Positions 3,362 to 42,891 of a DNA stretch of 49,741 nucleotides are shown here, in pieces. Within the stretch, counting starts at the first letter, position 1; each line of letters starts with the position of its first letter. The stretch covers positions 1 to 49,741 of the forward strand of contig JAUCBJ010001891.1 of assembly GCA_032718475.1 (NCBI GenBank), given 5' to 3'. The stretch is from Nemertoderma westbladi (taxonomy: Eukaryota > Animalia > Xenacoelomorpha). The notes under the pieces are model-generated. The model saw only the letters and a list, made by a program, of their open reading frames with translations. It ran no database searches and was not told the origin of the DNA. Made by a program: the position numbers and the translations under genes.

Positions 3362-5155
3362 ATGTCTGACACAACACAAACATTGTCAGATAGTCTCTTA
3401 GAGGGTTTTAGAATGAGTCGTCGACTTGGACAGTGTCTTGAAAGGAGAGAAGACAGAAAAGAAGCGGAAAGAAAAGTAGCAGCGACAGAAGCAGAAAGAA
3501 AAGCGGCAGAGGCAGTGGCAGAAGCAGAACGGAAGACGTCTGAAGCGACTATCCAACTAGAGCTGGAAAACCTTCAGGCGAAACAAGATTACTTGAAGAA
3601 ACAAACCAGAAGACTACCTGTGCCCAGTAGGACTGTTCCCGAGTCCGAACCCGTCCTGGACGCCGAGCGAGGTATCAAGAATTTATCGCCCGTCGTCTCT
3701 CGCTCGCCCGCTACTACGTTGGCGACTCCCGCTTCGGCGGTTGAGTGGGTAGCTGAGGGACGACGGGAGATGGGTCTCCTGCTCGAGCAGCTGAGGGAAC
3801 ACTGTTTGTGCTCCTCTCAGCAGGTCAGGGAAATGGAAGAGACTGTTCAGCAGCTCAAGGGAACAGTAAGGGAAAGTAGGTTAGAGTTGCAAAAAGTGCA
3901 GCAAAGTATCGCACTAGAATGCGACAAATTAGTCAACCTACAAAAGGGAATACCAATAACCCCTGTAACAGTGTGTCAACCTGTTAGGTCTGAAGTATTA
4001 CATGCGCAAGGTGTGGAGCCTACACGCATCTATACTGCTAGTGAAGTAGAAACTCCTATAGCAAACCCTATTAAGGGTGATTATACGCCTGTTGTTAATG
4101 ACATTCCCAATAGACCTGATAATAATCCGAGAAATTTATATACCGATAACTCGATATTCAATAACACGATGGCCCAAGAAAGTTTTACGCGTCAAATGGC
4201 TAGAACCGAAGCCCGTCAAGCAGTAAAGGTTGGAGAGATAGTCAAGTTCAATGGAGATGAGATGAAATGGTTACCTTTTAATGAATATTATAAAGATAAC
4301 ATACAGAACTCTGTGTTATCCAACGGAGAGAAACTTAGATTCCTCATCGAGTGCTTGGAAGGACCTCCCAAGTCAATGGCGTTAAAATTTATTGGACATC
4401 CAGATGGATTAAGACAAGTTTGGGATACACTAAACATCAGGTTTGGTAATAGGAATAACATAGCTAGGTATTTATATGCGAAATTAATGGCCCCCCGAAA
4501 GTTTCTTAGCAGCGGGATTATAGAGTTTTCCGATGAGATTCAGGAGATCTGTAGACAACTAGATTGGTTAGGTAAGTCTCATGAATACCAGAATTCTATG
4601 GTTGTAGGAGCCTTAGCATCTACTTTGCCCAAGGGTAGAGTAGGTACACGCTGGGACAAGAAGGTGTTATATACGATGGAACAACAACAACGAGACCCTA
4701 CCATGGCTGATCTCATGTCATTCTTGGATGGCGAAGTGAAATTACAACTCCTAAAGCAATCCAGAGAGAAAACACCGGAAAATAAGGTAAGTGAGAAACC
4801 CGTTTCTAGGAGAAGAGTAACACCGGTGTGTTATACTGATGACGGCGAAAGCCAAGCTTCTCAAGAAGAAGACAGCGGGAAAGACACCGAGAAATTTTAC
4901 TATGTTAACAAGACCTCAAAGGACGTAAGTAAATCTAAAGCTCGAACCCATGACAGGAGAGAACAGGTTGCTAAGACTCCTCTTCAGTTTCCTAACAGAG
5001 TACACGGAAGAAAGCCCGAAGAAAGAACTAGAGTGCATAACGTCACCCAAAATAAGGTGAGTAACATTAAACCCAACTGTGCGCTGTGCGACGGGCCCCA
5101 CCGTTTGATTTGCGTGTGCGGAATTCCTAAAGAAATCCTTGGTAGACAGACGTGA
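3362..5155 (+). CDS. gag: Bel/Pao Gag (N-terminal coiled coil, DUF1759-like capsid region, start of first Zn knuckle)
   Basis: 597-aa ORF with KFNGDEMKWLPF...LSNGEKLRFLIECLEGPPK...WDTLNIRFGN, typical of Pao gag. It ends in CALCDGPH just before a +1 frameshift. Confidence 0.9.
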   Translation: MSDTTQTLSDSLLEGFRMSRRLGQCLERREDRKEAERKVAATEAERKAAEAVAEAERKTSEATIQLELENLQAKQDYLKKQTRRLPVPSRTVPESEPVLDAERGIKNLSPVVSRSPATTLATPASAVEWVAEGRREMGLLLEQLREHCLCSSQQVREMEETVQQLKGTVRESRLELQKVQQSIALECDKLVNLQKGIPITPVTVCQPVRSEVLHAQGVEPTRIYTASEVETPIANPIKGDYTPVVNDIPNRPDNNPRNLYTDNSIFNNTMAQESFTRQMARTEARQAVKVGEIVKFNGDEMKWLPFNEYYKDNIQNSVLSNGEKLRFLIECLEGPPKSMALKFIGHPDGLRQVWDTLNIRFGNRNNIARYLYAKLMAPRKFLSSGIIEFSDEIQEICRQLDWLGKSHEYQNSMVVGALASTLPKGRVGTRWDKKVLYTMEQQQRDPTMADLMSFLDGEVKLQLLKQSREKTPENKVSEKPVSRRRVTPVCYTDDGESQASQEEDSGKDTEKFYYVNKTSKDVSKSKARTHDRREQVAKTPLQFPNRVHGRKPEERTRVHNVTQNKVSNIKPNCALCDGPHRLICVCGIPKEILGRQT

Positions 5156-6512
5156 AGTCATGTGGGATAAGCGGTTATGCTACAATTGTCTCAGACGCGG
5201 ACACCAGCGGCGAACCTGTTACTCCGACATAAAGTGTGCAAAGTGCGGTGCGAAACATCACATCTTGTTACAAAGTGAATTTGAACGAAACAGCCCGAGT
5301 CAGGTAAGTGAGCCCAAATCACATGTCCAATTCAGTGATGTGAACGACACTGACCAAAGTTCTGAGTGGGAAGGATTCTATACGGACGAATTCTCCGACG
5401 CCAACGAATCCTGTTACCTAATAAATACCCCAGTGTATCGAGCACTTACTTACGAAAAGGACACCGACAATGAGTTCCCCCCAACTACCTTCGACAGACA
5501 ACCATCCTGGAAACCTTCAACTTCCAACGTAGGAATCAGAGAATTTCCTGTAGTGCAGGTAAGAGTTCAGGGTCCTAACAAAAGTTACATAGTGAATGCC
5601 CTCCTTGACTCCGGCAGTACAGGAACATTCATCGATCAAGAACTAGCCGAAGACATCTTTGCTGGACAACCCAAATTCCGAACTAAGTTAAATATGTCAG
5701 GAGTTATACAGGTTTGGAAATCTACCATAACGGCAGATTACTATGTAGGTGCGTTGTCCACCCCACAGGATAAATTAGGAGAACAAAGTATAAGGTCAGT
5801 AAAAATGGTAGCTATAAAGAACTTCGCTAATACCCAAGTAGAGCCTTATAACTGGAACGAGGACAAGAGCATCCAACAACTTAAAATACCTCGATTCCAG
5901 ACGGATTATCCTGGAGTGCAAATACTTATCGGCCAAAACGCGCACGAGGCGCTCGAGACATTGGAAAAACGACCTGCTCAACCGCAGCCACTACAAACCT
6001 ATGCGGTAAGAACTAGAGTAGGTTGGTACTTTACTGGCCCTTCCCGCAGAACTCTCGAAGAGAGACTACCACCAGAAAGAATATGCCAGATAAATGGTTG
6101 GGAAGTGGAGAGCAGTGAAGTGGACGAACTAACTGAGGGAACACCATACTCCTCAGATAATGACGATATTAACTCCAATGAAGATCAATGGAGACATCGC
6201 CCCGAGATGATTAATCTAGCCGACATCGCTTCCAGAGGAGCGACTCCTCAAGAACGGATAGACACTCCCGGCTGGTTAGGTGGACCCGACTCCCTAAGTA
6301 AAGAAAAAGATGAATGGCCTCCTCATCTTACCACGGCGGAGGTTAGACAGGCCAAGGGAGCGGAGAAAGTAACACAACAACTCAATCGCCCAGCTAGTCG
6401 TTTATGTTTACTGGAAAGAGACCGAAAACTGTCCGGAAACTATGGAAGGCAAGATACTCTTCCTACGACTACTTCCCTAATCCGACAAATATCTAGGGAC
6501 TCCATAACATGA
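5100..6512 (+). pseudogene. pol: Bel/Pao Zn knuckles, aspartic protease and fused remnants of the RNaseH end and integrase C-terminus; RT and integrase core absent
   Basis: CYNCLRRGHQRRTC, CAKCGAKHHILL, ALLDSGSTGTFI (~5607), ILIG...AVRTRVGW, then QWRH..NLADIASRG..WLGGP..EWP (6186-6320) and RPASRLCLLE (~6387-6416). No YVDD or DDE motifs. Confidence 0.88.
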
Positions 6513-8138: not shown

Positions 8139-9097
8139 ATGACGGAATTGATAGAAGATGACCTTGGTATTAGAGAGCGATATACTCTACCTTTACAAGC
8201 GTTTGTGGATAGCTTGATACGCGGTGAAGCCGATCCGACTATTACGGAGGACGATGGTCGTTATATCGAACCGCCGATGTCCCAGGAACAACTTACGCGT
8301 GAATTGGACTATAGAAAATTCACCCTCGCTATACGAATCGTAATGGTACATATATGGACTTCTTAACTACCGGCCATCCTACCGATTTACATGATACGGA
8401 AGATGTAGACACCGAAAGGGAAATGGTTTTATTTAAATATCATGCCCAGCGGAATCGTAATGATAAACCGAGAATAGAACACGAGAACTCTATTCGCAAC
8501 CTACTCGACAGAGAAAACGTTGAAGAACCCGATAAGCGTATCAACTTCAACGACTACTTGGAATTTTTGAGAGAAACCTATCTCAATATTGCCAGTCAAC
8601 AGAACCTAGAGACTCGATATCCTCAAGGTATACATCACGATCCCATGGTAGAACTCAAACGACTCTATTTCACCATGATGTATCTTACCGCAGATCGTCC
8701 GCTGCCTGTTGTCCCGGACAGCTTTGAACAAATGGAAGAGTATTGCAAAACTGGAGAACGATCACCCGCGTTTCCTCTGCAGGACGTACGTCTTTGGTAT
8801 TATTGTGACTCATGTCCTAGACCTAACCAGCAAACGGAAAGACATAAACATCCGCAGAGACGTTACGCTAAACACAGTTTTACGCATTATACTTACGGGA
8901 GTTTCGAGCGAAACCTGTTCGACGTATCACCTACGATCGCTCGTCTCGAACGATCACTAAACAAACCCATGATCGGAGTTCCGGAATACTCGGTCAGACC
9001 TCCTCATTCCCTAGTGAGATCTCAGACTCTTGATCCTATTGGTATGACGGATCCTCCCGAGCTGTATTCACTTTTCAAAGATCTAGTGTTACCCTAA
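8139..9097 (+). CDS. Orphan extra ORF in the retroelement 3' region (75 aa and 247 aa halves, probably one ~318-aa frame split by an AT slip)
   Basis: Overlapping ORFs 8139-8366 and 8354-9097. Removing one AT from catatatgg (~8350) joins them. Complex, protein-like composition with WYYCDSCP; no family recognised. Confidence 0.55.
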
Positions 9098-16030: not shown

Positions 16031-18493
16031 CTAACTGTCTTTATGTTTTTTTCTAGTTAGTAATTTAACTAAGTGGCTCTGGTTAGTTTCATTCAATAAT
16101 TCACAGAATACAATAAAGTCATCATAAGGTCTCCTTTTAATGGCTTCTATTAGTTCGCTGTTCCTTTGTAAACCAGTCGGCTGATATTTGATCTGCTCAA
16201 TAAGATTTTCAGTAAGAATATTTCTACTTCTCAATAGCGGTAACAATTCACTCAGCTCCATGTTATAAACCAGTTCAACTTTATTCCTCATAAGAATATT
16301 TTCAAATTCTACATCAATATTTCCTTTTATCATATCTACTAAATGTTGTTGGTTTGTTTGTGTTAAACTATCCATAAATACTTTCATAATGGACTCTGAT
16401 TTCCCTTTTAGAGATTCTATAATGGCTCGGCTCTTTAGTATTTTAGTTTCTCTTGTTTCTATAAACTGAATCTGATCATTGTTTAGTATAAAACTTTTTT
16501 CGATATATAGTAATAACTCAGTTGGTTCAAGTTTTTCTTCAATTTTTTTTGTTTCAACTTTTAAATATTCCCGATCCTTTGATTTAACTAAAAACCAAGT
16601 TTTATATTCCTGAGTTTCTATACTTGCATTATTCTCACAGGTAATTATTGGTTTACTCAAACAATCTGATAGTAGAATAAAGTGGATACAGGATTCATTG
16701 TGGCATTTATATAGGCCATGCCTTTCACATTTATATGAACAAGGACATGTTACTTTCAATTGAAAATCAACAATATTGTTTATTTTTCCAGCTGATATAA
16801 GTTCTCCCAAGCTGTCAACAATGTATTCTTTTACTCTGTTTGCAAAATCAGAATCTGGAGGACTTATAATATTTTTGTTGCTATCAATATTATCTTTAGG
16901 TTTCATAAGAACTTTTCTTACAATTTGAACTTTTATTCTAGAAAAATGCCTTGGAGACACATATAGAATTATATCGTGATCAACATCACAGTATATAACT
17001 ACAGACCGGTAGTAAAGAGTTGGTTCAGATTTAATATCTCCAATGAGATACGACCATTCTATAAGGCGTTTTACTAGTCGATAAAATAGACCCTCAGGTA
17101 AAAAACCATTAAAAGCAATAAAAAATTCAATATCATTTGCTTTAATAGGGTAAATAGGCTGATTGGCATTTTTAAGTCTACAAGGTACATAATATGATTT
17201 ATTCATTTTTGACTTTTTTAACAATGGTTCTGATTCGTTTCCATTACCTGGCACAGTTTCTCCTATTCTTTCACATATTAAATCAAAACGCTCTAGGATT
17301 TTTAACATAAAATTTTTTTTGAGTCCCATATTACCCCAGATATCGTCCAGTAGATCCCAGTGCAATATACCCTTGTCATCCAAATCCTCAAAATATTTCA
17401 AATTTTTCCAATTGATATGTTCTTTGACTGTAATTATACTGGCAAACATTGAACTTAACCACTCTGGTTTCAATATAATTGTATCACGCAACGATTCTTC
17501 ATCAAAATACATAATTCTACCTCTATCATGGTAAAACTCTAACATTGTCTTTAAACCGGGGTATTCAAATTCTACTTTTATTTCCTTTAACTTACATTCT
17601 AAATCTATAATATCAATATAAACGTCATCATTTTTAAGTAATTGAGTTACAAGTTTTTCAAATTTTAAATAATCCAAAGGAATTTCTTCCTTAAATTTGT
17701 CCATTTCTTTAACAATTTCTAGCTGTAAGTTTTGAAGTTCTTCATCTGAATCTGATCTTGCCTCTTTGCTATTTTCCACAGCAAATGCTGCTTTAACTAA
17801 AATATTGCAATGCATTGTGGACTTTAATAGTCGGAAAATTTCTATAAACTTTTTACGAGCTAAAATGTTCTGAGTTTCTGGATCTTCATGCAAACTGGCT
17901 TTCTTTGTTCCAACTAAGAATACTGGAGAACCAGAAATGTTTGCGCCACTTTCGGAATTATTTTTACCAAATGTAAATATATTGCGCAACCAAAAATCAA
18001 TAAATTCTATATTAGTCATGTCGCTATATATCTTATTTATATTCTCTTCATCGGCTCTGAATATAATGTTGGCTGTTTTATCAGCATCTTGGGTAAGATC
18101 AAAAACAACTATATAAATAGCCCGTCTACTTAGAAACATCTGATGGGTTGTGTAATAAATACATTGGCCACCAAAATCGAGGGATAGGCGGGACAATAGA
18201 CGGGACAATAGGCGGGACAATATGCGGGACAATGGGCGGGACAATAGGCGGACAATAGGCGGGACAATAGGCGTGACAATAGGCGGGACAATATGCGGGA
18301 CAATAGGCGGGACAATAGCCGGGACAATTGGCGGGACAATAGGCGGGACAATAGCGGGGACAATTGGCGGGACAACATGCGGTACAATAGGCGGGACAAT
18401 GGGCGGGACAATAGGCGGGACAATAGGCGGGGCAATAGGTGGGACTAGTACTACTACTACTTCTAGGATCGCCATGCTGCATTGCAGCTGCAT
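16031..18493 (-). CDS. Roco copy A: 5'-deleted ROC (G3 onward)-COR-Cys/His motif-2xCARD, with an open chimeric N-terminus made of LINE 3' UTR and 12-bp repeat; probable pseudogene
   Basis: 820-aa ORF. Roco similarity begins at DFGGQCIYYTTHQMFLSRRAIYIVVFDL (18180), then VFLVGTK, LEFYHDRGRIMYF..IILKPEWL and YYVPCRL. CARD-like ILMRNKVELVYNMELSELLPLLRSRNILT..FCELLNETNQSHLVKLL. No P-loop. Confidence 0.8.
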   Translation of the reverse strand: MQLQCSMAILEVVVVLVPPIAPPIVPPIVPPIVPPIVPHVVPPIVPAIVPPIVPPIVPAIVPPIVPHIVPPIVTPIVPPIVRLLSRPLSRILSRLLSRLLSRLSLDFGGQCIYYTTHQMFLSRRAIYIVVFDLTQDADKTANIIFRADEENINKIYSDMTNIEFIDFWLRNIFTFGKNNSESGANISGSPVFLVGTKKASLHEDPETQNILARKKFIEIFRLLKSTMHCNILVKAAFAVENSKEARSDSDEELQNLQLEIVKEMDKFKEEIPLDYLKFEKLVTQLLKNDDVYIDIIDLECKLKEIKVEFEYPGLKTMLEFYHDRGRIMYFDEESLRDTIILKPEWLSSMFASIITVKEHINWKNLKYFEDLDDKGILHWDLLDDIWGNMGLKKNFMLKILERFDLICERIGETVPGNGNESEPLLKKSKMNKSYYVPCRLKNANQPIYPIKANDIEFFIAFNGFLPEGLFYRLVKRLIEWSYLIGDIKSEPTLYYRSVVIYCDVDHDIILYVSPRHFSRIKVQIVRKVLMKPKDNIDSNKNIISPPDSDFANRVKEYIVDSLGELISAGKINNIVDFQLKVTCPCSYKCERHGLYKCHNESCIHFILLSDCLSKPIITCENNASIETQEYKTWFLVKSKDREYLKVETKKIEEKLEPTELLLYIEKSFILNNDQIQFIETRETKILKSRAIIESLKGKSESIMKVFMDSLTQTNQQHLVDMIKGNIDVEFENILMRNKVELVYNMELSELLPLLRSRNILTENLIEQIKYQPTGLQRNSELIEAIKRRPYDDFIVFCELLNETNQSHLVKLLTRKKHKDS
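18184..18444. repeat. 12-bp minisatellite (aataggcgggac)n, continuing as a remnant at 20436-20473
   Basis: About 21 tandem units; the same unit occurs at 41590-41808. Confidence 0.95.
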
Positions 18494-20435
18494 TTTTAAG
18501 AATGCTGTGCCGGCTTTTCAACAAAATTGCACAGCCACAACTCCCTATCACCCATGACATTGGCTATATCATGCGCATCTTCAAGGCCAGTGTCCTTTAA
18601 GATGCATCTCAAGAAATTCATGGGCTGTCCACCATGCTTATTCACTCCATGAGGCTGCCAAAGTACAAGATTATGCACTGCCTGGTCCTCACGGCGAAAG
18701 CAATATCCTGCAAAGCGGAGGCGATTTTGTTCTATTGTCAAGCTTGGGGGAACCAATGAGACACCTCCAATGTTATATAGTGTCTGGTTGGAGATATGTG
18801 CATTGTACTTGACACAATGAACCCGGCGTAGCATTCTTGCGAATGTGCCATCCTGAGATTTGGTGTCCTCAGACTGGAACTACCGCTGCTCTAAATAATC
18901 GGACCTTAAGTTTCCGATTAATTCTCGGTGACTTCCAAATCCTGGAAAGCCTATTCAAGGCTGCCCATGCCTTTCCCTTACGTATTCGAAGGTCCTCACC
19001 TGACTTCCGGATCCATGATCCCAGGTAACAGAAGTCGTCCACATGCTCAAGCATACCATCCTTTGAGCTTATGCTCATCCGATCAGAGACTTTCTGGGGA
19101 CTTTCAAAGATAACTGTCAAAATTTTGGTCTTTCTGGAGTTAATAAAAAGATCAACACTAGAAGCAGCATGTTCTAATGAGCTGGGGAGCCGTTGGGCTC
19201 CCTCTAATGATTCTGAGAGTACTCCTAAGTCATCAGCAAAGTCTAGATCAGTTAGGTACTTGGCAGGATTTCCACGACTTCTGGAGTCAGTACGTGGAGT
19301 TATCATCACCCCATCATCATTATGATGATCTAAGGACATGCGTAGAACATAGTCAACCACAATAATGAACAAGAATGGTGCAAGTGTGTCTCCTTGGAGG
19401 ACGCCCCATAACACTTCAAATGGTTCTGTGTCACCGTCAACAGTAGACACAAATGTTGTCGAACCAACGTATACTGATCTGATTGCTGCAATAATTTCAT
19501 CAGGAATCCCATATAATGAAAGTATGCTGAACATACGTGAGCGAGAGACTGAATCAAAGGCCTTGAAGAAGTCAACAAAGATAACAGCCAGATGCCTGTC
19601 TTTCATTTTTGATAATTCTTCAATTATCCTTCAAAGTGCCAAAATGGGCTCCATGGTCCCACGACCTTTACGGAACCCATTCTGATTTCCACGGAGTAGT
19701 CTCTCAATGGGATCCCTGATGCGATTTAATAGAATCCTAGTGTATAGCTTTGCAGCAATCGAGATCAATGAGATTCCCCGAAAAGAACCATAGAGTGTTA
19801 GGTTGCCCTTCTTGGGAACTGACACCAACTTATTTGTTTTCATTTCTTGTGGGACTCGTGTTGTTCGGTACATGTCTACTATGATGGGATATATGAGCTT
19901 TAAACACTCAGGTATTTTAAAGACCTCAGGGGGAACACCATCTACTCCACTGGCACGATTGGTCTTAATGCTCTTTGCAGCAGCATTCACTTCTGCAAAG
20001 GAGATATCGCCAATGGGAATATCTGGGAGTACAGACTCAGACACTTTTACTTCTATAAAGTTATCAGGCAATACCCTGTCATTATTGGGGAGCTTTTCAA
20101 AGTGGGCTTTCCAACCATTGAGGCGATCGGCTGGTGATTCAGCCTTGACCTTGGTGGTTGGTTGGCTTTTCCGCCCAGTAAGCAAATTGATCGATTTCCA
20201 TGCCTGGGATGATTGCCTGCTGTCGTCAGCATCATTGATGGCATCAACCTGTTGGTTTACTAGCTCCTGTAGATTAACAGAGTACTGCTTGTTCAGGGAC
20301 CTAGATGCAGCCTTAACTGCATTCTTTGCCGCTGTAGTCTGTTTGAGTCGGGACTCTTTCTGCGCCTTATGAAGGTCATTTCAGCACTTCTGAATTTTGT
20401 TGTCAGTCCAGGGGGCCCTTTTCCTGTTTCATTTG
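18445..20435 (-). mobile_element. RTE-clade non-LTR retrotransposon, 5'-truncated and degenerate (RT and C-terminus)
   Basis: FRGISLISIAAKLY, QNGFRKGRGT, FVDFFKAFDSV, GVLQGDTLAPFLF, DLDFADD and RLRFAGYCFR, split by stops and frameshifts. (GTA)n tail at 18445-18460. 11-bp TSD aataggtggga at 18434-18444 and 20436-20446. Confidence 0.93.
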
Positions 20436-20571
20436 AATAGGTGGGAAAATAGGCGGGACAATAGGGACAATATGTATTTCGTGGTTAGTTACATTTGAGA
20501 CAGAATTACACATTATACAAATTTCTCGTAAATTACTGAACTAAATTACTCAACTAAATTACTCAACTAAA

Positions 20572-23500
20572 TTACTCATTATCAGAAATATCTTGAAATA
20601 GATTTACCAAATGTCCCTGTTCTGTATCAACTAATCCGTCACAGAATATCTTAAAGTCACTATAAGGACGTTTTTTTAGTTGCTCAATAAGTTCGTTATT
20701 CTTTTCTGTATCAGTTGCCTTAGAATTAATATTCTCAATAACAAATTGGTTTAAAACGAATTTAGCTTGTAGGTATATAATTAGTTCTGGTAGAATAAGC
20801 ATTTCAGATAATTCATATTGCTTTTTTGTTAACATAATTTTGTGGTGGTGTCGGTCGAATTTAATTTCAGATTTAATGTCTTCTGAAAACAAAAATAATT
20901 CAGCTATATGTTCCTGTCCTGTCTCCATCAAACTATTACAGAATAGTTGGAAATCTTTGTAAGGTCGTTTCTTTATGAAGTTTACAAGTTCGCTGTTTCT
21001 TTCTATTGAAGTTGTCTTTGAATTAATTGATTGTACCATAAAATCATTCACAACAAATTTACTATATAAAACAATAAGCAATTCATCGAGTTCAATATTT
21101 TTTGCCAAGACATATTGAAGACGAGTCAGCATATATTGGTGTTGTCTATTAAAAGATACTTCCGTTTTTGAGTTTTCCAGAAATAAAAATAGTTCAGCTA
21201 AAGGTCTCTGATTGGTCACTTTCAGTCCCTCACAGAATATCAGAAACTCACTGTAACTACGACCTTTAATTTCATTAATTAGCAAATTGTTCCTATCAGC
21301 TGTTTTTCGTTCGGATTGTATTAAATCCACAACTGATTTTTTCAGAACAGATTCACTCTGTAAATATATCAATAGTTCGCCAATCTCTAAATCTTCAGCT
21401 AGTCTATGTTGTAGTTCATTGAGTTTGCTACAATGGAATGGTTCTATTTCTTGGGTTAATTTAGTTTCTGTAAACCATTTTTGATACTGGCTTGTTTCCA
21501 CTTTTAGACGACTTTGGTCACAAAGAACCTCATTATTTGTTAGACAATTCTCGAGGCAAAGAAAATGAATACAAGACATATCCCCACAATCGCTTAACTT
21601 GTGACTTACACAACATGCATTACAATAGCATCTCACTTTCAAACTAAACCCTATGTTACATTGCTTACCAATAAAATTCGTTAAAATTTCTTTTATTTGC
21701 TCTTTAAATCGAGTAGCTATTTCTCGGTCAGGACCTGAAATAGACTCAACTTTATGGTGAATCAAAATAATTGGTCTTCTTATTAATTGAACTTTTATCC
21801 TGTAAAGATGAGGCGGAGCCTTTTCAATAACAATTTCGTGATCTAAATCCAAATATATTTGACTAAATCTATGGAACAATTTTGGTTCAATTTCTCGGTC
21901 ACCATTTTTGCATAACACCATTCTATAGTGTGTTTTACCAACTTAAAGTATAAACTCTCTGGAAGGAAACCATCAAATTCTATATAAAATTCAACGTCAT
22001 TTTCTGTGATTGGAAATCCATCTATTTCCTCCATAGGTTTAAGTCTGCAAGGTACATAGTATGATGACATCATAGCAACACCCGTTGTTGGTGAAGTGTT
22101 TTTATTTGTAATTGCAGGAATTCTCTCACACAATAAATCAAATCGTTCTAGAATATTTAACACAAACAGAATTTTAGATGGTTCAGTAATATCCCACCAT
22201 ATATAATCAACAAGTTCCTTGTGTAATATTCCTCTATCGTCTAGATCCTTCCATAATTTAATATGTTCAGGTTTTATTTTGTCTACTACCGTTATTATTC
22301 TTTTAAACATACCGCTCAACCACTCTGGGCTCAATATAACTGTATCTCTCAATGATTCGTCATCAAAGTAAATTATTGTCCCTAAATCGTGGTGGAAATT
22401 CAACATTGTTTTCAAACCTGAACCTTCAAAAACAACTCCGATCTCCGTTAATAAATTATCCAATTATCCATTATTATCAATTAGTCCATCACATCAACAC
22501 AAATTTTATCACGAGCTAATAATTTAGTGACCAGCTGTTGAAACTTAAGATATTGTAAAGGTATTTCTTCCATAAATTTAACCATTTCTTTTACAATTTC
22601 TTTCTGTAGCGCTTCAAGTTCCTTATCACCAACAGACCTCAGTTCCGGATCATTCTCAATAGCAAAATAATTTCTAACAAGTTTTTTATACGACATTTTA
22701 TTTATAAAAGTTAAAATATTAGTGAATTGATTTCTTGCAAAACCAGTTTTTATTTTTGGATCGCATTTATTGGTTCCAACAATAAATACTGGAGGTGCAG
22801 TAGTTTCAGGAACGCAAAATAATTTGTTGCTAAATGTGAAAATATTACGGAACCAAAAATCAATAAAATCTATATTCTTCATATCACCATAAACTTTATG
22901 AATATTTTCATCTTCAGCTCCCACTATAATTTCAGCCTGATCAGAAAGTTCATGCGAAAGATTAAACACAACGATATAAATAGCCCGTCTACTTAGAAAC
23001 ATCTGATGGGTTGTGTAATAAATACACTGGCCACCAAAATCGACTATCTGTAGAGAAAAGCGACTGTCTTCCTCATTAAATTTAGCCAGAATATCTTGAG
23101 GTTTACCAGATAACAATATATCCTCTATACCTTTTGTGACTTCTGAAGGGATATCATATTTATTGTCCTCAAATTTTGATTCATATGGCGTTACGACTTT
23201 TCCGATATCAGATATATTCCCTCTTTCGCTATCTACTGAAATATCTTCTCTAATTTCCTTGCTGCTTTCTATTTTAACAGGCTTATCATAAGAACTGGTG
23301 CTTTTATTCATGTCTCTATCGCTATTTTCACCAGATATTACTGATAAAGTTGACTGGATGCCATCAGTGTATATTTTTTCACTGTCCACATTAGAAGCAT
23401 CTTCTTGAACTTTGAATTCTAGAACACTTTTTGCAACTTTCTTTGCAACAGCATTGTCTGGATCAGCCTCTAAAATATCAACATTCTTTAAATTAGTCCA

Positions 23501-23943
23501 GTCTGTGTGTTTATCAGTATCTATAACACAATTAGCCAATGAATCAATACCATCTGTTATTGGTTCATTAATATCAAACGGTTGACCAATAAGGGCCTTC
23601 TTCAAACTAGTTTTACCAGCCCTCTCTTGTCCCACTAACATTAACCGGGTTTTCAATATCCATGTAGTCCCTTTAGAAAGAGCTGCTTTATAAGCAGCCA
23701 ATGCTTCTGGGCCTCTCGCCAGTATCTCTAGTGGCAGTTTTTGTTCTTTAATATAATTAATTAAAAATTTTGGACGTTTCAGTGTATTTGATCCACTTAT
23801 ATTCATAATCATAAGTCCCATGTCTCTGAATTTATTAACAATTTCTATTGTTGAAATTTCATTTAAACCCCAAATACTAACCAGATTCTGGGTTGTTAGC
23901 TCAGAAATATCTGCATCCAGTCTAAAGTAAAGTTCTTTCTCTT
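20572..23943 (-). pseudogene. Roco copy B: partial winged helix-ROC-COR-Cys/His motif-3xCARD, disrupted and 5'-truncated
   Basis: ORFs 22481-23821 (GQERAGKTSL, TDGI, DFGGQ, VGTN), 21843-22463 (COR) and 20572-21921 (COR end and three ~84-aa CARD-like repeats). Lesions at ~22460-22485 and ~21907. Identity to copy C stops at 23943. Confidence 0.88.
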
Positions 23944-27078: not shown

Positions 27079-29470
27079 GATGTCAACATTGAAACTAATT
27101 CAATACAACTAAATAGTACAGTAATAATTTTAAGGAGCATTTCTAACATTCTAAAAGGAGAAATTTCTTCCTGACTGAAAAACAAAATTAGTTCTAGAGG
27201 CCTTTGGGACTCAATGTAACTCACCTTAATATATCGAAGATTCAACTCCTTAAATAAATCGGATTGTTGGTCTAGTTGGAATATAAGATATGTTGCCGAA
27301 ATCTCAATGTTAAATAATAATCTGTCAGAGTTGAACTGAAGTTGTTGATTTAGAAGTCAAGAGTTGTTACTTGTCTGGAAAATAGCAAAACGAAAAAATA
27401 GTATTATGATTTCATATTAAAAATCCCTCCCAGCCCAGTGTAAAAATTGAAATTTGCATCAGCAATATATATTTAAATTTGACGTTCGTACGAGTTAGTA
27501 ATTCATTCATATGAGTTTGTAAATAGTATTTCTTTCTTTCATGTCCCTTTAGGGGATACGTAAATAAAGATTAGCTTATCTAACAATGAATTTGAATGAA
27601 TTTGAGAGACTTCTCCGTGGAAATCAGAATGGGTTCCGTAGAGGTCGTGGGACCATGAAGCCAATTTTGGCATTGAAGAGTTATCAAAAAAGAAAGACAG
27701 GCATCTGCCTGTTATCTTTGTTGACTTCTTCAAGGCCTTTGATTCAGTCTCCCGCTCACGTATGTTCAGCATACAGTACTTTCATTATATGGGATTCCTG
27801 ATGAAATTATTGCAGCAATCAGATCAGTATACGATGGTTCGACAACATCTACTGTTGACGGTGACACAGAACCATTTGAAGTGTTATGGGGCGTCCTCCA
27901 AGGAGACTCACTTGCACCATTCTTGTTCATTATTGTGGTTGACTATGTTCTACGCATGTCCTTAGATCATCATAATGATGATGGGGTGATGATAACTCCA
28001 CCTACTGGCTCCAGTAGTCGAGGAAATCCTGCCAAGTACCTAACTAATCTAGACTTTGCTGATGACTTAGGAGTACTCTCAGAATCACTAGAGCGAACCC
28101 ATCGGCTCCTCAGATTATTAGAACAGTTTGCTTCTAGTGTTGGTCTTTTTATTGACTCCAAAAAGACCACAATTTTAACATTTAACTTTGAAAGTCCTCA
28201 GCATGTCTCTGACCGGTTGAGCAAAAGCTCAAAGGATGGTATGCTTGAGCGTGTGGACGTCTTCTGTTACATGGGAGTATGGATCCAGAAGTCAGTTGAG
28301 GACCTTCGAATACCTAAGGGAAAGGCATGGGCAGCCTTGAATAGGCTTTCCAGGATTTGGAAGTCAACGAGAATTAATCGGAAACTTAAGGTGCGATTAT
28401 TTCGAGCAGCAGTAGTTCCAGTACTCCTCTACGGGAGTACTTGTTGGGCTCTAACTGCTGAGGACACCAAACAACAAGAATGCTACGCCGGGTTCGTTTT
28501 ATAAAGTACAATGCACACATCTCCAACCAGACATTATATAACATTGGAGGTTCTTTCAATGGTTCCCCCAAGCTTGACACTAGAACAAAGTTGCCTCCGC
28601 TTTGCAGGACATTGCTTTCGCCGTGAGGACCAGCCAGTGCATAATCGTGTGCTTCGGCATCCTCATGGAGTGAATAAGTATGGTGGACAGCCCATGACTT
28701 TCTTGAGAAGCATCTTAAAATATACTGGCCTTGAAGATGCGGATGATCTAGCAAATGTCATGGGTGATAGGGAGTTGTGGCGACGCAATTTTGTCGTCAA
28801 GCAGGCACAACATTCTTAAAAATGCAGCTGCAATGCAGCATGCCAATCCTAGTAGTAGTATCCGAAGAATTTCTAACGTTCTAACCAGAAATGTGTGAGA
28901 AATAGTTGTGGGTGTTGGTTTTTCAACTCACCTGAATATATCGAAGCTGCACCACCAAATAGGTGGGGTGATATAGTTTATGTGCTGCTGGCTGTTCTGA
29001 GAATTTGAGCTAATTTCATTGAGTTATAGATTTAGAAACATTCTAGATAGTTGTTGTCTGAAATATAACAAAAATTAAATATTATGATTTCATATAAATA
29101 TTTTCATTAGCTAATCTAACAGATTAGTTTAACAAACTATGTGGAACTTAATAAACTCTAGTCTGCTTTTGAATCTTAATAGCAAAAACCAATACCGATT
29201 ATTAACACGTTAACGTTATTTTTTTACGTTTAATTTTAAGTTGTTTTAAAGTATAATATGTTGTTTGCTGCAATTTTAAGTTCATATTGTCGACATTTAT
29301 AATTTTTCGAGTTTTATATTTTACACCCAGCTGCTATACTTACTCATTGAATTCACAAATTGTGTTTCTTTTTGCAGCAGATTTAATTTATAAATAATAA
29401 ATTAGGAATAATCAATGTCATTTAATACAGAATTGAAGCTAAACATCAGCTGGAGACAACGATCTGACAA
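27079..29470. repeat. Second copy of the duplicated exon-bearing block (paralogue of 10795-11780), interrupted by an RTE LINE
   Basis: Direct alignment by eye; splice-like sites are retained (actcacc at ~27220 and ~28927, tgtctg at ~27372 and ~29055). Confidence 0.85.
27601..28860 (+). mobile_element. RTE-clade LINE fragment of the same family as 18445-20435, in opposite orientation
   Basis: RGNQNGFRRGRGT, GVLQGDSLAPFLF and NLDFADD; same 3' UTR (cattcttaaaaatgcagctgcaatgcagc) and (AGT)n tail; frameshifted. Confidence 0.93.
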
Positions 29471-36182: not shown

Positions 36183-36957
36183 TCAGAATTTTATCCCATC
36201 ACTTTTCTGAAAGAGTTTCCAGTCCGACGGATTTCGCATAGATTTTCGTTTCTGGCAGTTTCCGAATAGAATAGTTTCTACCATGGTGTTGTACTTCGTC
36301 TCCACTTCTCTACAAATAAGATGATAAATTGTTAAATTTTATCGCGTCTATCATCTAACACTACTAATATTTATCACTCAGTTTTTTCAAATTTTTCAAC
36401 CACAAAAAATGAATTAATTAAAAAAAATTCCTAATGCAATTTAAGTCAACAACTGTGCTATTATTAATTCAAACAACTGAAGTACTAACTAAACCAGAAG
36501 GTGGAACATAAAAACTGGTAACAATAAATTAAATATTATATTTATTTTGCATGTAATCATTGATCGACAGATGGTCTTTGCTGACCAAGTTTTTGTGATA
36601 TTCTCGAGAAAAAAGGCCAGGAAGTGACACAAAGTATGAATTCTTACCGTCAATCTGTGTAATTTGTTAGCTTGAGCTAAGTGAAAGCCTTCAACTGATA
36701 GGTAAATCTTTCCAGTCTGCTGACCACTATATAAAACTTATAGTTTATCGTTTATTTAAATTACTAGCTATTATTGAATCTACAATTAAGGTTTTAATGA
36801 CACCTGACTTTATATTTAATAATTTTAATAATATAACCACTTTAATAGCAGTCTGTATCGTCTTCAATTAATTAGAGTTCTTATACAAAATTCAATTTTA
36901 TTAATTAGATGTTTTTATAAAACTATAATTAGAATTGTCTACAATGCATTTCCAGAC

Positions 36958-37830
36958 ACATTGATTGGTAACATCAATAACAACAGCTACATTATATTGA
37001 TTGGCAATGTCTATAACAGCAGCCTCTCCACCGGTTGATTGGTAACATCTATAAGAACAGCTGCATTACATTGATTGGCAATGTCTATAACAGCAGCCCC
37101 TCTACCTTGATTGGTATCGTCTATAACAACAGCTACATTACATTGATTGCCAATGTCTATAACAGCAGCCTCTCCACCGGTTGATTGGTAACATCTGTAA
37201 CAACAGCTACATCACATTGATTGGCAATGTCTATAACAGCAGCCTCTCCACTGGTTGATTGGTAACATCTGTAACAACAGCTACATTACATTGATTGGCA
37301 ATGTCTATAACAGCAGCCTCTCCACCGGTTGATTGGTAACATCTATAACAACAGCTACATTACATTGATTGGCAATGTCTATAACAGCAGCCTCTCCACC
37401 GGTTGATTGGTAACATCTGTAACAACAGCAACATCACATTGATTGGCAATGTCTATAACAGCAGCCCCTCCACCGGTTGATTGGTAACATCTGTAACAAC
37501 AGCTACATTACATTGATTGGTAACATCTATAACAACAGCTACATCACATTGATTGGCAATGTCTATAACAGCAGCCTCTCCACCTGTTGATTGGTAACAT
37601 CTATAACAACAGCTACATTACATTGATTGGCAATGTCTATAACAGCAGCCTCTCCACCGGTTGATTGGTAACATCTATAACAACAGCTACATTACATTGA
37701 TTGGCAATGTCTATAACAGCAGCCTCTCCACCGGTTGATTGGTATCGTCTATAACCCCAGCAGCCTCTCCACCTTGATTAGTATTATCTATATCAGCAAC
37801 TTCATCAGGTTGATCGGTAATGTCTACAAT
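36958..37830. repeat. 36+38-bp (74-bp higher-order) repeat overlapping the 3' end of Roco copy C
   Basis: Alternating ttgattggtaacatctataacaacagctacattaca and ttgattggcaatgtctataacagcagcctctccaccgg. Diverged in-frame units encode the last ~40 aa. Confidence 0.92.
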
Positions 37831-40800
37831 ATCCGCATCATAACCTTTGGTAGCTTCCTCTAGAGTATCAGCTAAATGATGTTGGTTGGTGACCTTGAGA
37901 CATGTACAAAAAGATAGAAAATCCTTGTAAGATCTTTTCATTACTGCGTTTATAAGTACAACATTTTTATCATCTATCGATTCTTTACATTCGATTATTT
38001 CTATGATAGATTTACTTATAACTTGTCTGCTAACAAGAAGCTGTGCGACAAGTTTAGTTTGTTCTAAATTATTCATTAACATATATTTATACTTTGTTAG
38101 AATATCAGGGAACATTTGGTCTTCCTTTTTGATTTTTCCGTGCAAAATTTCAACCAAAAGCGGTTGATTGGTTACATATAATGCTTCAATAAATAGTTTG
38201 TAATTAATTTCTGATCCCCATCTAATTGACTCCAACAAAATCTTATTCTTACTCAACAAATTCGACTTAGATTCAATAACAGCTAAAACTTCCTTTGATA
38301 TAGCCCCCTTACTTGCTAAGTATACAAGTAATTTTGAGATTTCCATTCTATCAATAAGGTCGTCTCGGTTAGTTGTAATGTTTAACCAATGTGAGCTAAA
38401 TCTCCCAACAACAGGGAATTTTCCACTAATATATCGACTTCTAACAGAGTTATTAAATTGACATTCAAGAAAATCATTTGATAGAATATCAGCCAGTTTT
38501 ACAAAGTGAAAACATCCTTCTTCATTGCAGTCAAGTAATCTATGTTGATCGCATTTAGCATTACATTCACATTTTATTTCGAACTCAAATGAAATATTTT
38601 TAAATCTCATTTGGGTAATAATTTCCTTCAATGAAGTATTAATAAAATGATTTACTTTATTCACAATATCCGGATCTGGTGCAAGTTTTCTTTCAGTTTG
38701 TTCATCGCCCGAACTCAACATCTCAGATCTAATTACCTGAACTTTAATCCAATTTAATGAAATAGAAGATCTTTCCAAAATTACCTGATGATTAAAATCT
38801 AAAAATATTTGAGCAACTCTGTGGTAAAGTTTAGGTTGAATTACTCTATTACCTACAATGTAGGACAAATCAATAGTTCTCTTAATTAAACGGTAGTACA
38901 ATCCTTGCGGTAAGAAACTCTTGAATATAATATAAAATTCAACTTTACATTGTCTTGGTGTGAATGGAGTATATCTAACAGATTTAAGGCGGCAAGGTAC
39001 ATAATAAGCCAACTTTACATCATCTTGCAATGTTCTTTCGGTTCTTGGTAAAACTCGTTCACATAATAAATCAAAACGTTCTAGAATATTCAACATAAAT
39101 TGTTTTTTATCAAGAACGCCTTCCCACAGATAATTAAGGAGTTCTTCATGTAATATACCATTGTTATCCAGGTCCTTCCAGAAAGTAAAATGTTGTTTCT
39201 TTATTTTGTCTTTAACAGTTATTATTTTGGTAAACATTCCACTCAACCATTCTGGGCTCAGTATAACAGTATCCCTTAGAGATTCATCGTCAAAGTAAAT
39301 TATTCTACCCAAATCGTGGTAAAATTCTAACATGGTTTTCAAACCAATGTTATCCATTTCTACATCAATATCCTTTAATTTAATTTCTAGCAAGTCAATG
39401 TCAATATAAACTTTACCATCCATGATTAATTGAGACACAAGTTGGTCAAATTTTAGATATTGCAAAGGTATTTCCTCCTTAAAATTTACCATTTCCTTGA
39501 CAATATCGGCCTGTAAATTTTCAAGTCCTTTCTCTCCACTATTTATAATCGCTATATTATTCTCTATAGCAATGTAATCTTTAATTAGATTATCTGTATA
39601 TGAAGATTTACCCAAATGGGTCTTAATCCTTTCAAATATTTTACTTGCTATTACAGATTGAGTATCAGGATCAGCATGTAAGCTGCCTTTATGAGTTCCA
39701 ACTACAAAAACAGGTGGACAAGAATTTACTTCTAGTTTTGTACCAAATGAATAAATATTTTTTAACCAAAATTCAATAAACTCAATATTCTTAATCTCAC
39801 CGAAAACAAACTCATTAATATTGTTTTCATCAGATCTGAAAATAATATCTGGAGTTTTTTCAAGATTTTCCAAGAGATTAAATACAATTATATAAATAGC
39901 TCGTCTACTCAAAAATATCTGATGGGTTGTGTAATAAATACATTGGCCACCAAAATCGACTATCTGTAGAGAAAAGCGACTGTCTTCCTCATTAAATTTA
40001 GCTAGAATATCTTGAGGTTTACCAGATAACAATATATCCTCTACTCCCTTTGTGATGTTGTCAGGAATATCATTTTCCATAGCTTCCCTTATGGGTTGCC
40101 TAGAAAGATTTTCTTCAATAGGTTTACTTTCATTCTCAGCAGTTAATAAAGTTGTACTAGATTTTTTAGTTATTTTACTTCTATTATATTTTGACTTTAA
40201 ACCAGGTAATACTGAAACTACCCGCCTCCACAAACTATCCTTTTGAACTTTCTCAGCACCATAACTTGAAGTTGAAGTAGCAATCTTATGTTGATCATCA
40301 GTAGAAGATGAAGATGTTGCAACTGAGGGTGTCGCAATACCAATACCCATTGCTGAAGTTCCAGAAATATCAGACTCATCACCTGCAACTTGTTTTCTTT
40401 CTAGAACTGTTTTTGCAATTTCCTTAGTAATGACGACATCAACAGCTGTCTCAGGCCCTTCTTTCATGTTGGTCCAATCTGTGTTTTGTCCGGTATTTAT
40501 AATACAGTTAGCAGATGAGTCAATACCATCAGTTATTGGTTCATTTATATCAAACGGTTGACCAATAAGGGACTTCTTCAAACTAGTTTTACCAGCCCTC
40601 TCTTGTCCCACTAACATTAACCGGGTTTTCAGTATCCATGTAGTCCCTTTAGAAAGAGCTGCTTTATAAGCAGCCAATGCTTCTGGGCCTCTCGCCAGTA
40701 TCTCTATTGGCAGTTTTTGTTCTTTTATATAATTAATTAAAATTTTTGGAAGTTTCAGTGTATTTGATCCACTTATATTCATAATCATAAGTCCCATGTC

Positions 40801-41181
40801 TCTGAATTTATTAACAATTTCTATTGTTGAAACTTCATCTAAACCCCAAATACTAACCAGATTCTGGGTTGTTAACTCAGAAATATCTGCATCCAGTCTA
40901 AAGTAAAGTTCTTTCTCTTTATCTGAAAGAACATCAACAGTAGATATAATTATATTAGTTATCTTACCCTGGAGTGGTTTATTTATGGGACCAACCCATC
41001 CAATATACTCAACAATTTCCTTTAATTCTTCAGCTTTCTTCAATATACTTTCCACCTGTTTGATACTTTTCTTTCTTTCAGTTTGATCTTTACTGAACGT
41101 ATCAATTATTCTAATTGTGCCGCCCTCATCTCCTGTATAAAGTATAATTATCGTTAAGCTGTCTTTCCACTGAGTTGACAT
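37711..41181 (-). CDS. Roco copy C, intact: APAF-1-like winged helix-ROC GTPase-COR-Cys/His motif-2xCARD-acidic repeat tail (1156 aa)
   Basis: Uninterrupted ORF. G1 RLMLVGQERAGKTSL, G2 TDGI, G3 IVDFGGQ, G4 VVGTHK, G5 IENN; COR LEFYHDLGRIIYF..VILSPEWL..YYVPCRL; two CARD-like repeats ending ALYVTNQPLLVEIL and CLKVTNQHHLADTL. Confidence 0.92.
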   Translation of the reverse strand: MSTQWKDSLTIIILYTGDEGGTIRIIDTFSKDQTERKKSIKQVESILKKAEELKEIVEYIGWVGPINKPLQGKITNIIISTVDVLSDKEKELYFRLDADISELTTQNLVSIWGLDEVSTIEIVNKFRDMGLMIMNISGSNTLKLPKILINYIKEQKLPIEILARGPEALAAYKAALSKGTTWILKTRLMLVGQERAGKTSLKKSLIGQPFDINEPITDGIDSSANCIINTGQNTDWTNMKEGPETAVDVVITKEIAKTVLERKQVAGDESDISGTSAMGIGIATPSVATSSSSTDDQHKIATSTSSYGAEKVQKDSLWRRVVSVLPGLKSKYNRSKITKKSSTTLLTAENESKPIEENLSRQPIREAMENDIPDNITKGVEDILLSGKPQDILAKFNEEDSRFSLQIVDFGGQCIYYTTHQIFLSRRAIYIIVFNLLENLEKTPDIIFRSDENNINEFVFGEIKNIEFIEFWLKNIYSFGTKLEVNSCPPVFVVGTHKGSLHADPDTQSVIASKIFERIKTHLGKSSYTDNLIKDYIAIENNIAIINSGEKGLENLQADIVKEMVNFKEEIPLQYLKFDQLVSQLIMDGKVYIDIDLLEIKLKDIDVEMDNIGLKTMLEFYHDLGRIIYFDDESLRDTVILSPEWLSGMFTKIITVKDKIKKQHFTFWKDLDNNGILHEELLNYLWEGVLDKKQFMLNILERFDLLCERVLPRTERTLQDDVKLAYYVPCRLKSVRYTPFTPRQCKVEFYIIFKSFLPQGLYYRLIKRTIDLSYIVGNRVIQPKLYHRVAQIFLDFNHQVILERSSISLNWIKVQVIRSEMLSSGDEQTERKLAPDPDIVNKVNHFINTSLKEIITQMRFKNISFEFEIKCECNAKCDQHRLLDCNEEGCFHFVKLADILSNDFLECQFNNSVRSRYISGKFPVVGRFSSHWLNITTNRDDLIDRMEISKLLVYLASKGAISKEVLAVIESKSNLLSKNKILLESIRWGSEINYKLFIEALYVTNQPLLVEILHGKIKKEDQMFPDILTKYKYMLMNNLEQTKLVAQLLVSRQVISKSIIEIIECKESIDDKNVVLINAVMKRSYKDFLSFCTCLKVTNQHHLADTLEEATKGYDADIVDITDQPDEVADIDNTNQGGEAAGVIDDTNQPVERLLL

Positions 41182-41182
41182 C

Positions 41183-41535
41183 CAATATTACGATGAAAAA
41201 TTCTGGGTTGGAGCAAGTTAAATATTATTAATCAAATTACAAATATAATTATAAATATATTTCGTTAGGCTCTCCAGTATGCACCTACGGTCCCTATACG
41301 TTTCCCTGCCTATGTCTTCTGTTTTTTGGTTACAACATTTATTCTGTTTTTAGTGCAATTTTCAACAGATATCAAGTCGTTCATTACGTTAGTCAATTCT
41401 GCAATTTATATTAGAATTTGTACTTTATTGATAAAGATAGCGCTGAGCTACCGAAATATATATGTAATTATATTTGACATTTGATTAATAATATTTAACT
41501 TGCTCCAACCCTGAATTATTCATCGAATATAACTG
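41183..41535. mobile_element. MITE inserted at the apparent start codon of Roco C
   Basis: 47-bp inverted repeats with 2 mismatches (cgatgaaaaattctgggttggagcaagttaaatattattaatcaaat at 41191 and its complement ending 41525). Flanking direct repeat tgacatc at 41176-41182 and 41534-41540. Confidence 0.8.
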
Positions 41536-41589: not shown

Positions 41590-41808
41590 ACGGACAATAG
41601 GCAGGACAATAGGTGGGACAATAGGCTGGACAATAGGCGGGACATTAGGCCAGACAATAGGTGGGACAATAGGCGGGATAATAGGCGGGACAATAGGCGA
41701 GACAATTAATAGGCAGGACAATATGCGGGGCAATAGGCGAGACAATAGGCGGAACAATAGGCGGGACAATAGGCGGGACAATAGGCGGGACAATAGGCCG
41801 GACAATAG
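41590..41808. repeat. 12-bp minisatellite (aataggcgggac)n upstream of Roco C
   Basis: About 18 imperfect units, the same unit as 18184-18444. Confidence 0.93.
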
Positions 41809-41960
41809 GATGGTTACAATTATAAAAATATGTTTTTTGCAATATTTCTGAGCCGAAGTATGAAGCTGAAATACAATATCTCACTGATACTGTATACTGT
41901 TAATATAAACAACAACCCGCGATACTGTATATACTGTTAATATAAACAACTACCCGCGAT

Positions 41961-42891
41961 GGTGTTCGGACACTTCCCCCCCGGACACTTCCCCCCCGGA
42001 CAGTTCCCCCCCCGCTCAAGTAGGACACTTCCCCCCCGGACACTTCCCCCCCGGATACTTCCCCCCAGACACTTCCCCCCCGCGGACACTCCCCCCCCCC
42101 CCCCCGACTGTTCTTAACTTCGCACATTCGTATTTTTCATTTTGTAAGGTAAACGGACCGCTTGTATCCAGATAAGTTGTATCCAATTTTCCTTTGGTAG
42201 CTCAGAAAGTGATCTTTTGCATCCCGATTTTACATTTTATATCCAAGTTTTATTGATGGGTTTTATCAAGGCAATTCCATCGTATTGTTTGCTAATCTTT
42301 AAACAATTAATTATAGTAGATGACCTATAAATTCCATCCCCCGAATAATATACTGTTTTTATTAACTATAGAATTATAATAATTAATTGTTTTAATTATA
42401 GGTATTTTTATGTAATAGTCTTCTTCAAATTGTAGCAGATGGGGATGAATATTATTGATGCAATCAAAATTATACCTCTCCAGGGTAAAATCGACATGCA
42501 TCGACCTGTATTCTGTGTTCAGCATTACATATTGATATACATATTACTACTATACATACTATATATATATTATACACACAACATATCAAATTTCCTGGTT
42601 ACTTGCAATATTTTTAATAGGATTTTGTTGAATTATATAATATTGTAGTAATTTATATATTAAATTGGTTAACATTCAATACAACTCCTACTTTAGGCTT
42701 AGTCAATTTATTATCTGATGATACAATTTTAATTTTAACACTTTAACTGGGGGGGAAGTGTCCGGGGGGCAAGTGTCCGGGGGGGGGGGGGGTGAAGTGT
42801 CCGGGGGGAAGTGTCCTACTTGGGCGGAGGGGAAGTGTCCGGGGGGAAGTGTCCGGGGGGGAAGTGTCCGGGGGGGAAGTGTCCTAGATCC
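41961..42891. mobile_element. Non-autonomous Mutator-like (foldback/Rehavkus-type) element
   Basis: GG...CC ends, inverted subterminal arrays (cggacacttcccccc)n and (ggggggaagtgtccg)n, and a 9-bp flanking repeat acccgcgat (41952-41960, 42892-42900). Confidence 0.8.

Follow-up and report, generated by a model that had tools for sequence, protein, structure and literature searches.

By analyzing a 49,741-nucleotide stretch of DNA from Nemertoderma westbladi (Xenacoelomorpha; GenBank assembly GCA_032718475.1, contig JAUCBJ010001891.1, positions 1 to 49,741 of the forward strand; the whole stretch is referred to below as the window), we found a Roco gene in which the GTPase part is directly preceded, in the same reading frame, by what is very probably the winged helix of a STAND protein. 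The window, animal DNA that is AT-rich and full of repeats, contains a tandem row of three Roco paralogs, all on the minus strand, and the segment in question belongs to one of them, copy C. With moderate confidence, we read copy C as an intact large exon of an invertebrate Roco gene, whose front was grafted from an Apaf-1-like gene and has lost its nucleotide sensing. The three copies are as follows.

37711-41187, minus strand: copy C, an unbroken, stop-free reading frame of 1,158 codons.
20572-23941, minus strand: copy B, a paralog with most of the winged helix, ROC, COR and three CARD stretches, spread over three frames.
16031-18178, minus strand: copy A, a paralog running from G3 of ROC through two CARDs.

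Within copy C, ROC, COR and two CARDs follow the winged helix in frame with no intervening intron; the domains are distributed as listed here.

About 40714-40950, minus strand: probable degenerate Apaf-1-type (STAND) winged-helix domain, residues ~80-158, called from profile matches.
39478-40710, minus strand: ROC GTPase (Pfam Roc, E 3e-11), beginning at the P-x-E-I-x-A-R-G junction of its clade.
38470-39477, minus strand: COR region with an approximate left boundary (Pfam COR-A, E 5.6e-12, residues 606-708), aligning with the crinoid Roco P0165 up to residue 887.
38137-38382, minus strand: CARD 1 (Pfam CARD, E 3.9e-8 alone).
37855-38079, minus strand: CARD 2 (Pfam CARD, E 2e-6 alone).

ROC is followed by COR and carries the nucleotide motifs G1 (GQERAGKT), G3 (DFGGQ) and G4 (GTHK, as in the relatives), with a long insert between G2 and G3, which makes the protein a Roco. 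Taken together, the two CARD stretches matched Pfam at E 4e-13; CARDs recruit caspases or adaptors. Neither HD2 nor WD40 or any other repeat was found after the winged helix of copy C, ROC coming directly next. At the other end of the frame, a 74-bp satellite (36957-37826) adjoins copy C and provides its final ~35 codons and the stop, and the true 3' end may differ.

An earlier note on this DNA had placed an APAF-1-type winged-helix segment at 40780-40960, partly shared by copy B. The peptide is present (minus strand, 40953-40786, within the stop-free frame 37711-41187), although the match continues to about 40714 (residue 158), and it recurs in copy B from the equivalent of residue 91 onward (23941-23735). 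The segment was compared with a profile derived from 120 bacterial Apaf-1-like loci, collected by means of a motif; 66 of these had 150 residues downstream, 58 had the histidine motif, 48 were Apaf-1-like and 29 were left after an 80% identity filter, the working alignment having 28 rows. This alignment recovers human Apaf-1 (317-449) at E 3e-27 and Dark at E 0.004. Residues 74-160 of copy C scored 16.7 bits against it, a score reached by none of 5,000 shuffles (maximum 8.8) and by none of 1,357 decoy tiles of other proteins (maximum 9.7). When all 1,569 six-frame segments of the window were ranked with the Apaf-1-like profile, copy C came first (E 0.033) and copy B second (E 7), and in hhalign (E 6e-4) the real score was matched by none of 200 shuffles. 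The tryptophan, the helix spacing and the terminal tyrosine of the segment are in register with the profile. A seven-row subset with short loops, picked afterwards on account of its fitting spacing, gave 19.0 bits, again with the tryptophan in register, whereas a nine-row profile of AfsR-like bacterial NB-ARC proteins gave 0.5 bits, as against 16.7-19.0 for the Apaf-1-like ones. As the hypothesis had been chosen before the profile was made, the controls bear on the score but not on which family was picked. NB-ARC proteins of the bacterial Apaf-1-like kind, equipped with WD40 or TPR repeats (e.g. loci L001, L007 and L027), were seen in Cyanobacteria, Chloroflexota, Acidobacteria and other groups.

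A number of results weigh against a graft from an Apaf-1-like gene. The 84-residue segment had one match among 24,736 Pfam models, namely Dark_WHD, at E 0.13 and 13 bits, where the curated cut-off is 27, and Pfam's APAF-1-like_WHD (PF21296) was not matched by it. Across the window, the E-value was 0.03 with the winged-helix profile and 0.3 with the full NB-ARC profile, and the hhalign probability was just 28%. The homolog searches described below did not turn up this fusion in any relative, and neither of the paralogs in the window is intact, which leaves selection on the fusion hypothetical. Lastly, exons further upstream may hold an intact nucleotide-binding domain.

Two single-sequence AlphaFold models were of low confidence (mean predicted local distance difference test, pLDDT, 38.6 and 46.6), the 88-residue model having four helices where a winged helix has them. 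With these low-confidence models, Foldseek gave nothing at E <=0.001 (best E 2.0), the human apoptosome ranking 13th out of 74 at a non-significant E 4.3, and a wide structural search peaked at Z 3.5 with many generic helix-turn-helix (HTH) proteins, Apaf-1 not being among the best 50 listed. No STAND protein was found in the PDB by phmmer at E <=10, with either residues 17-166 or 76-159; acyl carrier proteins (E 0.5) have another fold and were counted as chance. The top match in the ESM Atlas (0.91) was a cyanobacterial cluster without a name. Of the eight named families displayed there, seven were HTH or winged-helix ones, including ROQ1, NWD1, MalT, DRP and TANC1, with scores of 0.75-0.84, and any score below 0.9 is to be read as a lead only. 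We take the winged helices of these five to belong to STAND proteins. This spread, together with the sub-threshold Pfam score, the generic HTH proteins (Z <=3.5) of the structure searches and a profile built once the hypothesis was in place, would fit a segment not descended from Apaf-1, be it the winged helix or HTH of a different STAND class or of some other protein, or a helical pattern due to chance. Such an origin is improbable, since the sole family matched in Pfam is a STAND winged-helix one, and since the segment keeps the register of the Apaf-1-like profile and is all but invisible to the AfsR-like one. The sequence comparisons thus make the segment very probably a STAND winged helix and, a little less firmly, one of the Apaf-1 type in particular. 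As for the comparison with APAF-1/CED-4, the assignment in the earlier note stood up at the profile level, far above shuffles and decoys (16.7 bits, 0 of 5,000), but gained neither a Pfam score above the cut-off nor, with the low-confidence models, a significant structural match.

The switch residue of this domain type is missing at the following position.

40744-40752, minus strand: position of the LHD/MHD motif in the profile alignments, residues 146-148, reading L-P-K (R-P-K in copy B).

At least 90% of the profile rows have L-H-D-L here, compared with L-P-K-I in copy C and R-P-K-F in copy B, so the histidine is absent. In autoinhibited Apaf-1, ADP is bound by His438 of the LHD motif, with the winged helix blocking the pocket (PMC4691890). 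Because of this role and the loss of the histidine, the nucleotide latch of the winged helix has likely been lost. A link between two working nucleotide switches is consequently doubtful, the nucleotide-contacting histidine being gone. The claim of a chimera between a STAND winged helix and a Roco-CARD protein fared better: the front end of copy C is likely chimeric, as the winged-helix call holds at the sequence level and the segment is in frame with ROC-COR-CARD-CARD, though STAND-plus-Roco fusions as such already exist.

Upstream of the winged helix, the frame contains the probable beginning of the exon, beyond which lies a mobile element.

41132-41158, minus strand: predicted 3' splice site, inferred from sequence, with a branch-point-like hexamer CTTAAC at 41158-41153, an AG ending at 41133 and the first exon base at 41132, phase 1.
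40951-41132, minus strand: ~60 coding residues between the acceptor and the winged helix, fitting the second half of HD1 in length but not in sequence.
41191-41525, no strand assigned: element resembling a miniature inverted-repeat transposable element, 335 bp with 78-nt inverted arms, ending ~60 bp above the predicted acceptor.

The CTTAAC hexamer lies 21 bases above the AG at 41133. A codon model scored residues 1-18 as non-coding (-0.125 per codon) and residues 19-88 as coding (+0.212, like the winged helix), and the frame 41132-40923 stayed open in just 25 of 20,000 base shuffles. Two other beginnings are less likely, namely the ATG at 41181, which has a weak context, residues 1-18 moreover scoring as non-coding, and an AG at 40922 as acceptor, above which the frame is open, coding-like and carries the first conserved helix. 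By eye, residues 10-70 could be taken for a shortened sensor-I/RNBS-C/GxP region, but shuffles did as well in 648 and 426 out of 3,000 cases (the latter with a sensor-I/GLPL profile), and in a comparison of the 60-residue stretch with HD1 127 of 200 shuffles were equally good. No part of NB-ARC was thus matched by the 75 residues ahead of the winged helix. As there is no ATG within the exon before residue 131, earlier exons are needed. In the 8.5 kb of the window above the acceptor no upstream coding exon was found, where short exons could escape; the best coding-like stretch scored 5.8, as against 14.9 for 70 real codons. The full NB-ARC profile had no match in these 8.5 kb above copy C, and the 13.8 kb above copy B gave no NB-ARC signal either. 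The gene start thus likely lies outside the window. It is correct that, in the window, no P-loop or GLPL motif precedes the winged helix on the coding strand if one disregards a 'GK[ST]' string that occurs by chance in a frame of 25 codons; the remaining coding-strand P-loop motifs are those of ROC. Little follows from this absence, however, since the exon likely begins at the 41132 acceptor and the window yielded no exon above it.

These observations bear on a different architecture, NB-ARC-ROC-COR-CARD-CARD, in which exons beyond the window would encode a full NB-ARC, an ATP switch would oligomerize the protein and a GTP switch would gate the CARDs. The likely phase-1 acceptor and the lack of a usable start before residue 131 do call for upstream coding exons, the 60 residues ahead of the winged helix correspond in length to the interval between GxP and winged helix in the profile, and analogous proteins with NACHT ahead of Roc-COR exist (P0142 and P0150, see below). 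We nevertheless regard this receptor as rather unlikely, given the lost LHD histidine, an HD1-length stretch with neither GxP nor HD1 similarity, and the missing NB-ARC signal above copies C and B. Were it true, the Roco GTPase would substitute for HD2 and the WD40 sensor, and the GTP state, instead of cytochrome c, would gate an apoptosome-like platform whose CARDs face outward from the C-terminus; with the ADP-latching histidine lost, the STAND part would stay unlatched for good and control would pass to ROC.

The graft we favor is in keeping with the family of the recipient. The ROC of copy C belongs to an invertebrate Roco clade that exchanges N-terminal domains at the ROC junction. Out of 164 collected proteins, copy C included, 142 have the P-x-E-I junction motif and a P-loop within 60 residues. 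The winged-helix match ends one or two residues ahead of this motif. Relatives were scanned with Pfam for 4 of 14 ROC-start matches and 23 of the 150 representative matches listed, and the N-termini before the junction included Neuralized, DED, Macro, CARD-FN3, SH3, HEPN, OTU, TAZ, zinc fingers and kinase, with NACHT in two of the 23. Homolog searches gave 14 relatives among 1,294 candidates with the ROC start only, one of 7,997 candidates at E 1e-20 with residues 400-1120, and none of 765 candidates with the N-terminal 141 residues. The winged helix was unmatched in the 163 other collected proteins, one artefact aside, i.e. a repetitive bacterial Ig-domain protein with the sole best stretch covering most of the winged helix (among 150 listed of 180 representative matches). 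In the metagenome locus L121, whose frame ends within ROC, an acceptor-like sequence stands just ahead of the junction. Exon shuffling at the ROC junction would fit this sequence. The junction in copy C, by contrast with L121, has no intron, and its core is one intronless stretch. In a quick ROC-COR tree of 37 rows (P0122 was left out for want of the anchor motif, and P0040, P0096, P0165 and proteins shorter than 700 residues were excluded), the three window copies grouped on a long branch of their own (support 100) and the two NACHT proteins fell on a different one, which suggests that the fusion in copy C arose separately from the NACHT-Roc-COR one.

Among known systems, the closest are the kinase-less invertebrate Rocos with death-fold domains, e.g. 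those of Trichoplax (PMC4104024) and Aplysia (PMC9334734) and proteins of the 'neuralized PATS1' type (P0002-P0015), with which copy C shares the ROC-COR core, the junction motif, the G-motifs, a death-fold output and a variable N-terminus; it differs from them by its N-terminal Apaf-1-type winged helix and tandem C-terminal CARDs. P0142 and P0150 likewise have a STAND-family part ahead of the same ROC junction, but theirs is a NACHT (NLR class), whose NTPase domain can be detected, and the ROC-COR tree places them on a different branch. No publication on either was found in the literature searched; the C-terminus of P0142 is a trypsin-like peptidase. With Apaf-1, Dark, CED-4 and the bacterial Apaf-1-like NB-ARC proteins, copy C has the winged-helix pattern and the CARD output in common, whereas it has no nucleotide-binding domain or GxP that could be found, no LHD and no HD2 or WD40, and carries its CARDs at the C-terminus and a GTPase downstream. 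Previous accounts describe at least 17 Trichoplax Roco models with CARD, death, TPR, LRR and AAA ATPase domains (PMC4104024), up to forty surveyed domain combinations in animal Rocos, possibly including NB-ARC (PMC11378527), Rocos with TIR or death domains in Aplysia and sea anemones (PMC9334734, PMC5094078), and a ROC-caspase in Owenia (PMC11463336). Rearranged NB-ARC proteins are reported from amphioxus, in a text that does not mention Roc (PMC2575513), and STAND NTPases and AP-GTPases have been regarded as switches that run in parallel and can stand in for each other (PMC8195603, PMC7159879). No description of ROC-COR joined to an Apaf-1-type or NB-ARC segment came up in the literature searched, which took in few subscription papers, nor was an Apaf-1-type graft on a Roco found among the database relatives searched. 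STAND-plus-Roco fusions are already known in kind, from the NACHT-Roc-COR proteins in databases and, in print, from the Trichoplax models that combine an AAA ATPase with ROC-COR (PMC4104024), and the Apaf-1-type graft is a variant in a clade that swaps N-termini.

In the proposed course of events, the donor Apaf-1-like gene would have been cut just after its winged helix and joined ahead of ROC, where the winged helix would fill the slot in which relatives carry Neuralized, DED, HEPN, Macro, TAZ, FN3 or NACHT. Together with the 60 upstream residues and the product of the missing exons, it may serve as a structural cap or a protein-binding module, and not as a nucleotide sensor. Switching would be done by ROC-COR, whose GTP cycle would alter the dimer state, by analogy with other Roco proteins; bacterial Roco and LRRK2 go through a monomer-dimer cycle with GTP (PMC6337361). 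Such cycling would cluster the tandem CARDs, whereby a caspase or an adaptor could be recruited. Death and immune signaling in animals relies on two nucleotide switches, the STAND ATPases and the Roco GTPases (PMC8195603), and a natural protein in which ROC-COR-CARD has been joined to an Apaf-1-type piece would be an instance of parts traded between these families. Should a nucleotide-binding domain be encoded in the upstream exons, the gene would become a test case for a GTP cycle gating an apoptosome-like assembly; otherwise it is a further N-terminal swap in a clade known for them, notable mainly as the graft of a broken switch part.

The paralogs in the window differ in their state of preservation. 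Copy B is likely a pseudogene, and the 5' half of copy A has been replaced by a microsatellite and a reverse-transcriptase element. ROC-COR protein identity of copy C to copies A and B was 43-60%. At the nucleotide level, C and B are 94% identical over 40459-40919 only (counterpart 23484-23943), most of the remaining 150-base bins having 41-76%. A second patch of identity lies around G3 (about 39881-40031), and both patches, one from the winged helix to G2 and one at G3, reach 94-98%. This patchy identity on the GTPase core motifs is likely due to recent gene conversion, and copy B therefore provides no independent evidence of conservation. The winged helices of C and B are separated by four amino-acid and two silent differences in 69 codons, too few for a test. 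Another possible account is that of a recent, non-functional rearrangement in a repeat-rich tandem cluster, with the whole locus decaying and the protein never made. The broken copies A and B, the mobile elements and satellites flanking C, the entry of its 3' end into satellite and the excess, in that small sample, of replacement over silent differences are what such decay might leave behind. Decay of copy C itself is nonetheless hard to credit, as it retains ~1,140 open codons at ~32% GC, the G-motifs and both CARDs despite its divergence from A and B, and as its 60 upstream residues have coding-like codon use.

One and the same 12-bp microsatellite is found upstream of copy C (41592-41809), at the truncation point of copy A (18184-18445) and just downstream of copy B (20436-20472). 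Further upstream of C, an element of ~920 bp (41967-42884), bordered by inverted arrays of a 15-bp G/C-rich unit, sits inside a 35-bp satellite. Elsewhere in the window, two overlapping plus-strand frames at 3356-6512 encode DUF1759 (gag-like) and an aspartyl protease, which is typical of a Bel/Pao long terminal repeat (LTR) element. Downstream of these LTR-like frames, a 260-codon open frame (8315-9097, plus strand) had no Pfam match at E 0.01. A non-LTR reverse-transcriptase element (RVT_1, DUF6451) is present in two broken copies, at 27642-28819 on the plus strand and at 18496-20380 on the minus strand, the latter separating copy B from the truncated copy A.

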